From the NCBI RefSeq assembly GCF_002854065.1, contig NZ_CP024150.1: 64,000 bases of DNA; one strand, written 5' to 3'. Positions within the stretch are counted from its first letter, which is position 1. Every line of letters begins with the position of its first letter. This DNA comes from Escherichia coli (lineage in GTDB: Bacteria; Pseudomonadota; Gammaproteobacteria; Enterobacterales; Enterobacteriaceae). Below, piece after piece: positions 12,001-18,000 of this stretch. The position numbers were made by a program.

Positions 12001-15000
12001 GGCAGTATTCAGGTCAGCAGTGGGTAAAGTCTGATTCATCACATTGTCTCCTCATCGTCACGACTGCCGGGTCAGCCAGGTCATTTCCCGGAGGAGCGAA
12101 GCTCCTTCTGCCGTCCGGGTCTTCGGGGATTTCCCCGCAGTGGACCTTTCCGACGGGGGACGCTCACCACGTCACGGGGCAGTTGTCCGGGGGCAGACGC
12201 AAAAGTTTTTGACGCCTGCGGCAAAAAGTTTTGTGGCTGGTACATCTCTCCCCTGGACGACTGAAACGGGATGTGGTCGTGTATGTACCCCCGGAAAGTC
12301 CGTCTGCGGAGAACAGGCCGCAGTGCGGCGGCAGACAGGCAGAGACAGCAGCGCCATCAGGCGCAGTGGCCTTACACACCGTCAGGTGTGCAGGGAGCGC
12401 CGCATCCGGCGCGACCGGAGAAAACCGACGGCACAACAACGGCATGCTGTGGTCACTGGTACACCACTCCCGCACAGGTGAAAACAGAGAAAACAGCACG
12501 ACATCTACAATCAAAAAAAGTGAAATTTCTTCACTTTTTCACACTTATTTTTCGCGCTGATTTGGTGATTATGATGATAAAATAAAGTGAAGTTTTTTCA
12601 CTTTTTCAAAGGTATTTTATGACCGGCTGGGAACTGCGAATCTGGCGAAAAAGCATGCTCTGGTCACGCGAAAAAGCGGCCAGAGAATTTGGCGTGACAC
12701 AGAGAACATGGCACGCCTGGGAAAATGCGGAGCAGGTGGATGTCACCGTCTGGAGGACCACCCAGGCACTTTCAGTCCGTGACCTGCTGCCTCACATGCA
12801 GGGGATGCGCAAGGCAGATATCATCAGGCGACTGGAAAATGAACTGGGGGAAACGGCAGAGGATGTGTGAGCGTAATTCACAGCCTGGCTGAATGCCAGG
12901 CTACTGCTCATCAGGAAACAGTTTTTTCAGTTCTTCACCGGAAAGTCCGGTTGCCTCCTGAATCCGTTCCGGCGGCCAGCCCATATCCCGAAGCCGGCAG
13001 GCTATTTCCCGCGCCACTTCAAGCGCCCCTTCTTTAAAGCCTTCTTTAAAACTTTCTTTAAAACCTTCGTCGAAACCTTTCTGTATAAGACGTTCTGCAA
13101 TAGTCATACTGCTCTGCCCCTGCTGGCAAAAAAGCCCGGCATTCTGCCGGGCTGTGATGCTCTCATCAGTGAATGATTTTTTTCAGTTCAGCTTCGGACA
13201 GTCCGGTAGCCTGCTTAATCTGCTCAGGTGTCATCCCCATTTTCTGAAGCTGACGCGCAATGGCCAGGGCCTTTTCAAGCGCACCTTTCTGCTCAAGACG
13301 TTCTGCGATTGTCATCAGTTTATCCTCATGCTGCGGCAGGCGCTCGGCCAGCGCCCGCATAAATTCCGGTGATACAGTGTCCCCTGCGTTAACGATGTAA
13401 TGAATCAGAACACGCACCTGCTCGTCTGAAATTTCCACCATGACCTGCGGGAGTTTGTCCAGCAGCTCCATCATGTCACGATGGCGGATATGCTTCATCA
13501 GCAGCGTCAGTGCGGCCATCCGGCGATGGTTCATGATTTCATTGTCATCAACGACAGTGATATCAACCAGCGGAAACGGCTTTGTGTATATTTTAGCCGC
13601 AAGCGCCGGATTCTCAAAACAGTCCAGCCAGTTCATGCTGTACGGGTACGGGCTGCGCTCACCGTGATAGAACAGCACCGGAATGACCAGTGGCAACGTT
13701 TTGTGCTGCTCCAGATGTCTCTGCATCGCCGCCACACTGTAACGTAACATGCGGAAAGGCATGTACAGATTTTCGGTGCTCTGGTGCTCGATGAGCGTAT
13801 AAACATAGCCGTCTTCACCCCCGGTGATTTTCACACTCCAGAGGATATCGCTGGCGTACTGATGCAGGTCCGGCTCAACAAAGGTGGCGGGTTCCAGCTT
13901 CAGCGTGGACAGGTCGCACAACTGCCGGTACTCCGCCGGAAGATGCAGTTCCAGAAAATCTCTGGCGACGTCGGGATTCGCCAGGAACGACCGGAACGCG
14001 GCATCATGCGGCGTGGGCGTTGTGGTGTTTTTCTTCTTACTCACGGTTCCTCCTGGTGAGATGTTTGAACGTATCCTGCCGCCTGCACAGGCAGACGGCA
14101 AGGGTTAATCAGTGGCAGACCCGTTCAATTTCAAGCGCGCGGAGCAGGTGGCCCCATTCGCTGACTTTCATGGCGGGGATACGCACCCGCTTCTGCTCAC
14201 TGCAGCGTCTGGCGATATGACCGCTCATCGCCAGGACGTCCGGGTTAATCTCATCCTGTGCCAGCTCCTGACGTCTGACGCGGGTATGGCGGTGCAGGGG
14301 TTTATTCTCCCGCAGGCACTCTTCACGCAGACGCTTTACATATTCAGCCGTTGCAAAGATAATTGATGGTCTCACAAATATTTCTCCTTATGTTGTTGAT
14401 GACTGCCGCTCTTCCTGGCGGGGAAGCGACGGCGGAGAGAGGCAGGGTTTATCGCCCTGCTTTTTTCATTCCGGGCAGCGGCGCAGTGCCAGCGCGAGCG
14501 CTTTCATCTTCCAGCCTTCCGGCGTGCGGTACATCACCTTCCAGTAGCCGTCGATGAACACATAATGGAAGCGCACCTCTTCAGTGCTTTCAGTGGCAAT
14601 AGCCTCCATGAAAGAACGGTACTCACGCGCCTCACTGTCCATCCGGAAACCACTGTCACGTCCGTAATAAGCCGTCACACCGTCCACCGGGTTCTGAAGC
14701 GTATGCCCGGCGGGTTTGTCGCAACGGGGACCGAGGCAACGGATATCACCGTGTTCAACCAGGGCTTCGGCCTGCTGACCGGTGGCATAGTGGGTATGCA
14801 GGATGCGACCGTTCCAGGTCGGCTCACCGTGCAGGTGGCAGTAAACGGTACGGAACACCCCGTCGCGGCAAAAAACGGAAATCGTGCTGCTGACTGTCAT
14901 GAAAACGTCTCCTTCTGCTGAATCAGGTCGCCGGGCCGACCGGTTACTCCCCGGAGGGGCGAAAGCCCCTTCTGCCGTCCACTTCTTCGGGGTTTCTCCC

Positions 15001-18000
15001 CGCAGTGGACCTTTCCGATGGGGCAGCGACTGCCACGGCACGGGGCAGTTGTCCGGGGGCAGACGCAAAAGTTTTTGACGCCTGCGGCAAAAAGTTTTGT
15101 GGCTGGTACATCTCTCCCCTGGACGGCTGAAACGTGTTGTGGCCGCTTCAGCCCCCGGAAAGTCCACAGCGGGGAAACAGGCCGCAGGGGGGCGCCATCA
15201 GGCGCAGTGGCCTTACACACCGTCAGGTGTGCAGGGAGCGCCGTTTCCGGCGCGACAGGGGCGGCGCGACCGGAACGGTCGCTGCAAGCCTGGTTTTTCA
15301 GACATCGGACCGTAGCGGCAGCCCGAAACCGCGCCAGCGGGTTCGGCGGAGACTGGCGGGTGCGCCAGCAGCTGCCTGTCGGAGTCGGGCCTGACGACCG
15401 GATGCCGCCAGGCAGCCGGGAGCCGAAGGTGTCCCCGCCTCCGGAAATCAGAACAACAGAAACGACATAACAGAAAAATGCCTCACACCATGACGGGCAG
15501 GAAGGGCAGCGCCGCAGGCGCGGCCCTCCTGCATTTCAGGCAGGCGTAAGCCTGCCAGGGTTTTCCGGCGGCCCGGCAGGCCATACCCCCGCCGGAGCGG
15601 GGGAGTAAATCACCGACGGAACACATGACCGTCAATAAAGGTGAAGGAGTCCAGGAATAAATCCCGCGCATACGCCTCATAGTCAAAATAGAGCGCCACC
15701 GTCTCCGGCACGCCAGCCAGCAGGCCGGTATCACTGGCGAACTCAACCGCAAAAGCCTCCTCACTGTCAGCCTCGCCCCACCAGGCATCGCGGAAGGTGT
15801 CAAAATCCGTCTCACCGGTATCATCCACCCAGAGACGATAAGCCTCTTCGCAGCCTTCATCCCGCGCCTGGCGGAAGCCTTCAACCCAGGCCCAGTTGAT
15901 ATGGCATTCAGAGGCCATATTCCCCGGGAATCCCTCATAATCCTGAAACATCAGTTCCGGATCGGTTTCATCCTGGTGAAGGGCACGGCAGGCGGCGAAA
16001 AAATCGCGTTCATCATCAAACGTGGTCAGGTCAAACCAGCGTCCGGCGATACTTCCGCAGTTGTATTTGTGCCAGGTTCCAACGTATACAGCAGGTGCAA
16101 CAACAGACATTCCCGAATCCTCCATAGTCACATGTTCTGCGACACCGGGCGGTGCCGTGCCTCCATCTTTGCCGGGCCTGCAGGGATGCAAGGGCGCAAG
16201 GAAAGCCGCAGCCCGACGCGCACGGCTGACGGGAGTTGGAGGGTGAGACCGCGAAATCTGAGCGGGTGAACGACCGGAAAATCACGGCAGACGGGAAGGA
16301 GGGACCGGGTGACCGCAGCGGCGAAGCGTACCTTTGCATCCCGCCCACAGAAGCCCGGCTACGATGGAGGCACGGCACAGCCCGCACACGACACGATGGC
16401 TTCATACCTGAAAACCCACAAGGCCATGCCCCGCATGGCCGGGTAAAAGCGGAGCCGCCGGCGACGTCCTTATTCCGGCGAGAGCAGGGAGCACACCGCA
16501 TGATCTCCAGACCACCCCTGGAACGAAACGATCATGACCGGCATGTCCCTGCCCCTCAAGCATACCTCCACTGGTTCACCGAAGAACATCCGTGATGCTC
16601 ACAAGTTTTCTGTCGCGCAGCCAGTCCTGCGCTTCACGCACCACACAACTGTCCGGTTTCACCGCTTTCAGCGATGATGCCAGTCGCTTGATCAACATCA
16701 CCAGTTCCCGTGTCTGTATGTCCGGCATTGTCTCCGGCTGAGCACCGGCTTCAAAAATCAGCCGCCAGAGTGGTTCCTCCTGCCAGAAAAACCGGTCAAA
16801 TGATGACAGTGACGGAAAACGCCCGCACCACCCCCAGAAAATCGTTTCCAGATCATGCTCCTCAACAACACCAGACCAGCGGGACAACCAGCTTCCGACC
16901 GTGGCGGGAGTATGAAACGCAAGGTCAATCTGCGCCTGAGCAAAACATGTCTGGTATTCCCGTTCCCGTCGTTCTGCCTCACGTTCCCGCTGGCGGCTGT
17001 ATTTCTGCTCTGTCAGCGTGGTTTTCTGACGACGCCGCTCACCTTCACGAAAAGGCACGGACGGGAACAGACGGTGCCCCGCATCGGATGGCAGGGGAAG
17101 AACACAGACTTCTCCAAAACTTTCAATCAGTTTATCCACGGCAGCCAGCCACAGGAGACGGTTGCCATGAAATTCCTCCTTCGTCAGCGCAGGGGCAAAA
17201 AAGCGGAGATCGGTCAGCGAAATCCGGCGACTGCCATTCAGGCAGCGAAAGAAAGCGGTGGCATAAGGCCATGCTGAAAGTGTGCGTCCCTGACGACGTT
17301 GTTCGGTGACAGCCACAGCCTGCATGGCGGCCTGTTGTTCTGCGCTGAGGGGGATCAGTGCCCGTGAACGAGCGCTCATGCCTGACCTCCTTCTGCCATC
17401 AAAATATGAATGATGTCGTTAACACTGTATCCCTGCGCATCAAGTGTCGCGGCGAGCGCCAGCGTGTGACTGATCGCGACAGGCGTGAAGATATGTTGCA
17501 CCTGAACGACGGCGAAAGGCTGTCCACCACCACTCACCAGAACCAGCATCCAGAGTTGAGAGACGTCTCCCGGCGAACATAATGCCAGGTGAAAACGTTC
17601 GTGGGCTGGCGTGAAACGAACCTGGACGGGGAAAAAGCCCCCGAACTCACTGCCATACTCGCCATTCATCATCCAGTTATCAGCCGGAACGACCAACAGT
17701 TCTGCGCCGCTCCTCCACAGGGTTATTAACCGATTCTGTGGATAACCCTGAATCTGTTTTTCCAGACAGAACAGTTACCTGACGGGAAACAGCAAAATTT
17801 CACTTGCAGGACAGAAAATCTCTTAATAATACTGTATATAAAAACAGGTATTTTAAGAGGTATGCCATGATCCTTTTTGTCACTCCCGCATCTGAGGCAG
17901 CACTGTTCACCGCACCACTTTTCACAGAACGCTGTCCGGCAGGTTTTCCGTCACCGGCCGCAGACTATACCGAAGACGAACTGGATCTGAATGCCTACTG

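Follow-up and report, generated by a model that had tools for sequence, protein, structure and literature searches.

Probable single-stranded DNA promoters in the leading region of an Escherichia coli plasmid with IncI-type transfer

Single-stranded DNA (ssDNA) promoters allow the antirestriction and SOS-inhibition genes of conjugative plasmids to be expressed before the second DNA strand exists, and such early expression is one reason that resistance plasmids cross restriction barriers so easily. In this report, we analyze four structured elements, called E1 through E4, in a 64,000-nucleotide stretch of Escherichia coli DNA from contig NZ_CP024150.1 (hereafter the window), all of which very probably are ssDNA promoters of the plasmid leading region. 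Transcription from a hairpin only while the DNA remains single-stranded has been shown for the plasmids pESBL, ColIb-P9, and F. Rolling-circle sso elements and the hairpin early promoters of phage N4 likewise consist of hairpins in ssDNA that are stabilized with SSB and read by RNA polymerase. The sso elements yield primers only, and the N4 promoters are read by the virion RNA polymerase rather than by the sigma-70 holoenzyme. These systems share their principle with E1–E4 without having any sequence relationship to them.

In the case of pESBL, donors were removed after mating and the RNA of the recipients was sequenced (Wen et al., NAR 2025; PMC12672017). Six leading-region operons were induced up to ~500-fold at 15 min, and start sites were mapped by 5' rapid amplification of cDNA ends (5' RACE) for the hairpins located upstream of all six. 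These hairpins were sorted into class 1 (ssi1–3 and Frpo), class 2 (ardA and klcA), and class 3 (5' of M.EcoGIX). The ardA and klcA hairpins resemble each other and not Frpo, and hairpin promoters were found to be active only before conversion to double strand (PMC12672017). A 2026 preprint renamed the classes ssp1–3 and reported that complementary-strand synthesis halts at the class 2 hairpin of F until the hairpin is removed by UvrD, and that the single-stranded state lasts longer as a result (10.64898/2026.01.09.698686). The ssi1–ssi3 elements of ColIb-P9 and the Frpo1 and Frpo2 (ssp1) elements of F are covered by a longer series of studies (Masai and Arai 1997; Bates et al. 1999; Couturier et al. 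2023), and the known Frpo/ssi sequences are listed in Supplementary file 4 of Samuel et al. (Nature 2024; PMC11541004).

The four elements of the window belong to two of these published classes and are already known in that sense. By sequence, E1 and E2 (known since 1999) are class 1 elements homologous to F Frpo, and E3 and E4 are class 2 elements of the ardA/klcA type (ssp2 in F). The E3 type has been known since 2024–2025, with starts mapped in a plasmid that is 89–99% identical in these segments. Identity to published elements, position, strand, fold stability, covariation, and conserved promoter bases were computed here. Transcription from ssDNA, the mapped starts, and zygotic induction would carry over by analogy with near-identical plasmids, chiefly pESBL-EA11 (NC_018659; pESBL throughout this text), whose leading-region intergenic segments were compared with those of the window. 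The window adds no new principle. It does provide the example of a mosaic enterotoxin/microcin plasmid with IncI transfer that has lost ssi3-ssb-psiB and has gained a second ardA together with a diverged class 2 hairpin. Furthermore, the class 2 alignment presented below is useful for annotating elements that pipelines miss or cover with spurious open reading frames (ORFs).

Two classes of hairpin upstream of leading-region genes

An earlier note, made by reading the DNA alone, had described four structured, GC-rich elements that each immediately precede a named gene. All four are present, with lengths of 253–330 nt and GC contents of 0.61–0.68, compared to 0.50 for the window overall. The range proposed for them (12060–16345) takes in E1 and E2, while E3 runs past its end and E4 lies 22 kb outside of it. 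The suggestion that the elements are promoters firing on the transferred single strand is supported for all four. Of these, E1 and E2 are ssi1 and ssi2, but E3 and E4 form a separate class without sequence similarity to Frpo. Profile searches with nhmmer recovered two copies of each class and no more in the 64 kb, all of them on the plus strand, at distances from the presumed nick site of ~1.5 kb (E1), ~4.3 kb (E2), ~5.5 kb (E3), and ~27.5 kb (E4).

The two class 1 elements are readily matched to their published counterparts, a comparison with F and ColIb that the earlier note had proposed. E1 (ssi1; 12089–12418, plus strand, 330 nt, GC 0.64), whose hairpin base is ~47 nt from the start of a DUF4942 gene, is 99.1% identical to "Frpo1" (ssi1) of ColIb-P9 and equally 99.1% identical to the pESBL segment 5' of the DUF4942 gene. 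E2 (ssi2; 14952–15262, plus strand, 311 nt, GC 0.65) is located 52 nt from the ATG of a gene at 14466..14900 and is 83.8% identical to "Frpo2" (ssi2) of ColIb. The entire intergenic segment that contains it (14901–15609) is 92.5% identical to the pESBL segment between ardA and the gene for a 144-amino-acid (aa) protein. Both elements are ~74% identical to the core of F ssiD. Like the ssi elements of ColIb-P9, they occupy the same place after the origin of transfer (oriT) on the same strand, form an imperfect hairpin of ~330 nt with an A/T-rich apex, and precede the same downstream genes.

E1 and E2 had been called near-identical over more than 300 bp, which overstates their likeness. They are 81.5% identical across 357 columns with 31 gaps, and reach 96% only in two blocks of 113 and 68 nt. 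E2 is itself a mosaic whose flanks are 96–100% identical to ssi2 of ColIb and pESBL, whereas its apical 90 nt (15042–15131) are 96–100% identical to E1/ssi1. This arrangement, in which E2 differs from the ssi2 of ColIb-P9 by carrying the apex of ssi1, points to gene conversion between dispersed ssi copies.

The apical stem of E1 is A/T-rich (12198–12235) and is followed on the 3' arm by a 10-nt bulge, GTACATCTCT (12240–12249). Beneath the bulge, the class 1 hairpin continues with a perfect duplex, CCCCTGGAC/GTCCGGGGG, and then with a mismatch-rich stretch. When nine diverse class 1 elements are aligned, the invariant bases are the T and G of TGGACN and the G of a TG located 15–16 nt farther on. 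The precise hexamers and starts given for this plasmid are inferred, most of all those of class 1, and the assignment for E1 draws on conserved columns and pairing. These suggest a -35 element TGGACG (12254–12259), a 17-nt spacer, and an extended -10 element TG-n-TCGTGT (12274–12282), and the A/T tract suggests an UP element. The candidate -35 element of E2 is TGGACG at 15120–15125, with its candidate -10 region at 15140–15148. This layout is the better conserved of two that can be drawn for class 1, and its -10 element is poor. The other layout places a -10 element TACATC within the bulge (12241–12246), which is not conserved in the Serratia and insect elements.

The first class 2 element, E3 (16140–16392, plus strand, 253 nt, GC 0.68), lies ~36 nt from the ardA ATG at 16110. 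The pESBL segment 5' of ardA is 88.8% identical to window bases 16111–16552, which hold E3, and the pESBL segment 5' of klcA is 86.9% identical to E3. The long stem that the earlier note had recognized near ardA is real: GGATGCAAGGGCG at 16184–16196 is paired with CCTTTGCATCC at 16331–16341. Within the hairpin, a candidate -35 element TTGCAT (16334–16339) is duplexed with 16186–16191, a candidate -10 element TACGAT (16360–16365) is partly unpaired, and a further duplex downstream joins 16366–16378 to 16152–16164.

The second class 2 element, E4 (38150–38412, plus strand, 263 nt, GC 0.61), lies ~35 nt from the ATG of the second ardA gene (37619..38125) and has a counterpart of the same stem, formed by GGATGCAAGGGCG and CCCTTGCATC. 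Its -35 element TTGCAT (38359–38364) is in duplex, its -10 element TAAAGT (38380–38385) has an unpaired AAA, and the downstream duplex is 38388–38397. In double-stranded form, E4 would have TGTCGT on its coding strand in place of the TAAAGT displayed by the hairpin, and therefore this promoter would be present only in the folded single strand. E4 is 97.5% identical to Klebsiella plasmids, and elements of its type are present in thousands of Klebsiella and Enterobacter plasmids; we assign it to a Klebsiella/Enterobacter-type module. The starts of E3 and E4 would fall ~7 nt past the -10 element, near template positions 16158 and 38172, respectively, and would give leaders of ~47 nt that contain Shine-Dalgarno sequences.

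Neither E3 nor E4 gave a hit to class 1 sequences, and E3 has no match among the known Frpo/ssi sequences of Samuel et al. (Supplementary file 4). E3 is 77% identical to the candidate "Frpo' 4" of the same authors, and E4 partly matches their "Frpo* 1". These two candidates and a third, "Frpo* 3", can be aligned with E3 and E4 along the full hairpin and have the same invariant bases. They had been listed as Frpo-like; in the present analysis they are class 2 elements and not Frpo homologs. As in pESBL class 2 and in F ssp2 (5' of yfgB/ardB), E3 and E4 combine a hairpin, an arm bearing TTGCAT and TAnnnT, and an antirestriction gene directly downstream. Unlike the pESBL elements, E3 has a spacer that is 5 nt longer, and E4 is a distant member of the class. 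In other plasmids, the class 2 element is located directly 5' of ardA, a klcA-type antirestriction gene, or a DUF1281 gene, always in the same orientation.

Folding of the transferred strand, which had been proposed as a check, gave stable hairpins for all four elements. With flanks included, the ssDNA folds of the plus strand are far more stable than those of dinucleotide shuffles (z = -6.8 for E1, -8.2 for E2, -4.8 for E3, and -4.2 for E4), and for each element none of 100 shuffles folded as well. In a sliding scan of the 64 kb with 300-nt segments and with GC content regressed out, E2 (z = -5.6) and E1 (z = -4.5) are the two strongest outliers, and E3 (z = -2.8) and E4 (z = -2.5) lie in the tail. 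The plus strand is also more stable than its complement by 7–15 kcal/mol in all four elements (13–15 kcal/mol in class 1). The DNA fold of E1 is -97.2 kcal/mol for the plus strand versus -81.9 kcal/mol for the minus strand (-119 versus -102 kcal/mol with flanks), and that of E2 is -99.4 versus -86.8 kcal/mol.

For class 2, sequence variation could be examined in an alignment of 12 members and 285 columns drawn from six genera and metagenomes. It contains E3, E4, the two pESBL elements, and eight others, including representatives from Yersinia pestis pFra, Klebsiella aerogenes, K. pneumoniae, an E. coli IncI plasmid, and an Enterobacteriaceae plasmid; the remaining three are candidates of Samuel et al. 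Forty-six pairs make up the consensus hairpin, in which 95.8% of cells are paired across the 12 sequences. When partners are slid by 1–3 columns, pairing drops to 34–41%. Changes on both sides occur in 20 of the 46 pairs, compared to 9.2 +/- 1.6 in shuffled alignments (none of 500 shuffles reached 20). This covariation shows that the class 2 hairpin is under selection.

A second layer of conservation is confined to one arm. On the 3' arm, the TTG of TTGCAT, the T, A, and T of GGC-TAnnnT, and the subsequent CACGGC are invariant. The invariant bases of the two hexamers are the positions read by sigma-70 at -35, -12, -11, and -7, and the 5'-arm bases that face them vary. In the consensus fold, pairing takes in the whole -35 element, T-12, and positions -8 and -7, and leaves positions -11 to -9 unpaired. 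The single-sequence fold of E4 is the same as the consensus at the -10 element.

Proposed mechanism and competing explanations

The strand that enters the recipient can be read from oriT. Bases 10500–17800 of the window are 100% identical to the E. coli plasmid p2017.06.05CC_1 (NZ_AP027791.1, 109,780 bp), and they have thousands of matches at 90–96% identity among IncI, IncB/O/K/Z, and IncF plasmids. The source record annotates an IncI-type relaxase gene, nikB (7473..10193, minus strand), and nikA/mobA (10205..10537, minus strand). Adjoining nikA is the oriT core (10583..10629, plus strand), with an 18-nt inverted repeat whose arms are 10583–10600 and 10603–10620. The repeat is followed by ACATCCTG/TCCCG, with the slash marking the presumed cut. 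The motif ATCCTG/T at 10623–10628 corresponds to YATCCTG/Y, which we take to be the nick consensus of IncP/IncI relaxases, and the cut would be made after G10628. Because the motif is on the plus strand, the plus strand of the window would be the transferred strand (T-strand), entering 5'-first from ~10629 upward. The ColIb-P9 leading-region record AJ238399, in which E1 corresponds to 1459–1787, would by extrapolation start at window position ~10631, and this fits a nick near 10628 and transfer in the upward direction. Upstream of nikA, the annotated order is DUF4942, a helix-turn-helix (HTH) regulator, an Rpn nuclease, two hypothetical genes, ardA, and psiA. The pESBL plasmid is collinear with the window from oriT to inside psiB (DUF4942, HTH, Rpn, 88 aa, 144 aa, ardA, psiA). 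Since the leading-region genes behind the elements are encoded on the minus strand and point toward oriT, the T-strand would be their template.

These observations can be assembled into a mechanism that follows the published systems. After the IncI relaxase nicks oriT near 10628, the plus strand would enter the recipient 5'-first, and each element, while still single-stranded, would fold into a long imperfect hairpin whose stem rebuilds a sigma-70 promoter. For class 2, TTGCAT on the 3' arm would be presented in perfect duplex, with TAnnnT following 15 nt on and with A-11 and its neighbors unpaired, such that the -10 element would be opened in advance. Host RNA polymerase would then start a few bases downstream, use the 5' arm as template, and run out of the hairpin into the adjoining gene. 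The genes served would be DUF4942 (E1), the 144-aa, 88-aa, and Rpn genes (E2), and the ardA genes (E3 and E4). Once the complementary strand is made, the hairpin would be gone and the promoter off, leaving a short burst of expression from the genes that enter first.

Several observations weigh against this mechanism, or at least against its uniform application to all four elements. The earlier note had proposed looking for a mimic of the -35 and -10 elements within the stem, and class 2 has one in its invariant TTG and TAnnnT. For class 1, two hexamer layouts fit and neither candidate -10 element is a good match to the consensus. The spacer between TTGCAT and TACGAT in E3 is 20 nt long, compared to 15 nt in every other class 2 member, and therefore the strength or start site of E3 could differ from that of the pESBL element. 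In addition, the single-sequence fold of E3 pairs A-11, leaving T-12 and C-10 unpaired, and its pre-opened -10 element is less clear than that of E4. E4 is only 66–67% identical to the two validated pESBL class 2 segments (BLAST E = 1e-10 to 1e-12), and an inserted inositol-catabolism block precedes it at its distance of 27 kb from the nick. The service of E4 as a working promoter during transfer, including its timing and use, would have to follow by analogy. Finally, prediction of the consensus structure on the plus strand may have inflated to some extent the excess of G.T pairs seen on that strand in the class 2 alignment (24, versus 3 on the minus strand).

Among the competing explanations, the one that survives best is that the hairpins mainly prime complementary-strand synthesis, as the name "ssi" originally implied, with a short RNA from RNA polymerase being extended by DNA polymerase III and with mRNA as a secondary product. 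We consider this to be possible, if doubtful. Frpo RNA stays as an RNA–DNA hybrid and primes DNA synthesis in vitro (PMC7690428), and early rifampicin-sensitive conversion events of F occur near ssp1/Frpo (10.64898/2026.01.09.698686). However, each of E1–E4 is directly 5' of an ORF that has a Shine-Dalgarno sequence, and the genes downstream of the pESBL hairpins respond with up to ~500-fold induction (PMC12672017). Priming is also compatible with promoter activity, and would be a function added to it rather than a replacement.

A similar argument applies to the idea, which we judge somewhat unlikely, that class 2 hairpins are chiefly roadblocks to complementary-strand synthesis that keep the oriT side single-stranded and thereby prolong the activity of E1 and E2. 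E3 is well placed for such a task, as synthesis would meet it before E2 and E1, and it has a long GC-rich stem that is maintained by covariation. Work on F located the stalled 3' end of the growing complementary strand at the end of the ssp2 stem and showed that the block is resolved by UvrD and that PsiB output is halved when ssp2 is deleted (10.64898/2026.01.09.698686). The roadblock has been shown for F ssp2 only and not for IncI elements, and a roadblock alone does not explain why TTG and TAnnnT are invariant on one arm, as promoter function does. Again, this would be an added role and not an alternative.

It is very improbable that the structure instead acts in RNA, whether by regulating from a 5' untranslated region, by ending transcription of the upstream operon, or as a small RNA. 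Covariation looks the same for a DNA hairpin and for the hairpin of its transcript, and the segment 15263–15609 beside E2 does look like a cluster of terminator hairpins. Yet the invariant -35 and -10 bases have no explanation at the RNA level, and the G.T pairs that favor the plus strand 24 to 3 would be A.C mismatches in a minus-strand mRNA. Furthermore, transcription from the deduced starts would copy only the 5' arm, and therefore the mRNA could not form the hairpin. An Rfam scan of the whole window at gathering thresholds found no family in E1–E4 or in the surrounding region, and its only matches were two AgrB-like RNAs elsewhere.

Most improbable of all is that E1–E4 are ordinary double-strand promoters or inert repeats (repetitive extragenic palindromic-like sequences or insertion sequence [IS] remnants), an option raised in the earlier note that would suit their repeated, GC-rich character and the apparent gene conversion of E2 from E1, which is typical of dispersed repeats, but a conventional promoter scan found no sigma-70-like site on the coding (minus) strand inside E1, E2, or E3, duplex E4 reads TGTCGT, the class 2 alignment covaries strongly, position and orientation before leading-region genes are fixed across genera, and published hairpins are active only before conversion (PMC12672017).

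Genes of the leading region and the second ardA module

The genes adjacent to these promoters had been described as all residing on the minus strand, but one gene (10764..11105) and the HTH regulator gene (12619..12870, 83 aa) are on the plus strand. The first gene on the T-strand is the DUF4942 gene (11191..12042, minus strand, with 12039 also given as its boundary; record annotation), which forms the single-gene "ssi1 operon". Its protein has PHROG matches to methyltransferase-like families, and a counterpart is found in the same place in pESBL. The HTH gene is the only regulator gene of the leading region and, being on the opposite strand, would be expressible only after second-strand synthesis. 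The region upstream of it is AT-rich and carries inverted repeats (12515–12537 and 12584–12606). The only minus-strand sigma-70-like site near E1–E3 is also found in this control region (12601..12574), where it points through E1 toward DUF4942, and it may be a conventional, repressible promoter for the double-stranded state.

The E2 (ssi2) operon begins with the 144-aa ORF (14466..14900, minus strand), which is named "PndC" in IncI plasmid annotation, and continues with an 88-aa hypothetical ORF (14109..14375, minus strand) that is conserved in pESBL. Searches of the 144-aa and 88-aa proteins against Pfam, NCBIfam, PHROGs, and PADLOC returned no functional name; neither protein matches a Pfam, NCBIfam, or PADLOC family, and the 88-aa protein has no PHROG match either. 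The 144-aa protein belongs to a very large uncharacterized family with members in bacteria, archaea, and viral metagenomes. Its fold is predicted with confidence and lacks a solved relative, and its invariant or near-invariant residues are Y20, H22, D24, H66, R81, D82, and Y113. One might speculate that "PndC", possibly together with the 88-aa ORF, is an early effector enzyme that disarms host defenses or reprograms the recipient, a role that we nonetheless regard as unlikely.

ORF callers extend the 144-aa gene through E2 (14466..15167, minus strand), and a hypothetical protein of 65 aa is annotated in the source record across the 3' part of E1 (12388–12585, plus strand). Both are probably artifacts of translating GC-rich hairpins. 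The DUF1472 label attached to such elements in other records may have the same origin, but a Pfam-A search of all frames of E1 and E2 gave no match to a current family.

The third gene of the E2 operon encodes an RpnA-like nuclease of the Rpn family (13166..14044, minus strand; NF007361, E = 3e-98). The Rpn family has been shown to be a toxin–antitoxin and phage-defense system (PMC10400941), and this gene is judged not to be an anti-defense gene. Next to it is a stand-alone, RpnS-like ORF of 68 aa (12901..13107, minus strand) with NCBIfam and PHROG matches to the Rpn C-terminus, the RpnS or antitoxin domain. It is 49% identical to residues 244–290 of the adjacent Rpn protein, apart from a 16-aa insertion that consists of four 4-residue repeats encoded by 12-nt tandem repeats (13026–13077). 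According to published work, repeat number decides which RpnL protein an RpnS protein inhibits. The RpnS-like copy may not match the neighboring Rpn, and because its repeat number differs from that of the adjacent protein, its targets might instead be Rpn nucleases in the recipient.

The GC-rich, multi-hairpin spacer between E2 and the ardA stop codon (15263..15609, plus strand) has a z-score of -7.1 and is conserved with pESBL. It could hold terminators, priming sites, or something else. Part of it (~15510–15585) resembles 37281–37354 near the second ardA module. The adjoining ardA antirestriction gene (15610..16110, minus strand; record annotation) forms a single-gene operon.

Of psiA and psiB, which the earlier note placed beside oriT, neither is intact. 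The psiA gene (16576..17379, minus strand; positions 1–220 of the 239 in the PsiA profile matched) has lost 505 bp near 16743 relative to pESBL, a deletion that joins it to the tail of the next ORF. The psiB gene (17376..17696, minus strand) is a 5'-truncated remnant that matches PsiB positions 44–144 of 144. Similarity to pESBL stops at 17679 inside psiB and is followed by umuD, a truncated umuC, and the inositol-catabolism operon. This interruption at 17679 accounts for the absence of ssi3, ssb, and the first 43 psiB codons, and therefore the promoter of the ssi3-ssb-psiB operon has been lost. The third ssi copy of ColIb-P9 is thus missing here together with ssb and the start of psiB. The loss agrees with a report of recurrent loss-of-function changes in this operon among IncI plasmids (PMC10104558). 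Of the genes expected in a leading-region anti-defense cluster of the kind described by Samuel et al., ardA is present, psiA is altered, psiB is truncated, and ssb is absent. For the DUF4942, "PndC", 88-aa, Rpn, and RpnS-like genes, an anti-defense role would be conjecture.

At a distance of 27 kb from the nick lies the second, divergent ardA gene (37619..38125, minus strand; record annotation). Behind it, in the same orientation, come a 64-aa ORF, a gene for a protein similar to the theta subunit of DNA polymerase III, and a hypothetical gene. Downstream of this module, a short segment (36336–36420) is 79% identical to part of the candidate "Frpo* 2" of Samuel et al. and lies beside a copy of IS30 and a truncated orfA of the IS3 family. 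The insertion may have cut another leading-region element here and left this segment as a remnant.

Other features of the window and its plasmid

One of the most structured spots of the window is unrelated to the leading region. It is a perfect 24-bp palindrome, TTCCCCTCACCCTACCCCTCTCCC AGT GGGAGAGGGGTAGGGTGAGGGGAA, located in the iolD–iolG intergenic region (29354–29404). The two Rfam matches to the AgrB antisense RNA are at 4239–4326 and 54180–54267 on the plus strand, with scores of 41 and 61.5 bits, respectively. DinQ-like type I toxin genes (dqlB; record annotation) accompany both: one at ~3837–3932 is close to the first AgrB match, and another at ~53759–53854 is a few hundred bases from the second.

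The plasmid that matches the oriT-proximal region exactly, NZ_AP027791.1, was also inspected outside of the window (83486–84768, 90132–93982, and 98361–105979). It is a mosaic that combines an IncI-type transfer system, a leftover traI-traX-finO end from F, and genes for microcin B17. It also carries a gene annotated as a cholera-enterotoxin-like B subunit, which is preceded by a hypothetical gene that possibly encodes the A subunit.

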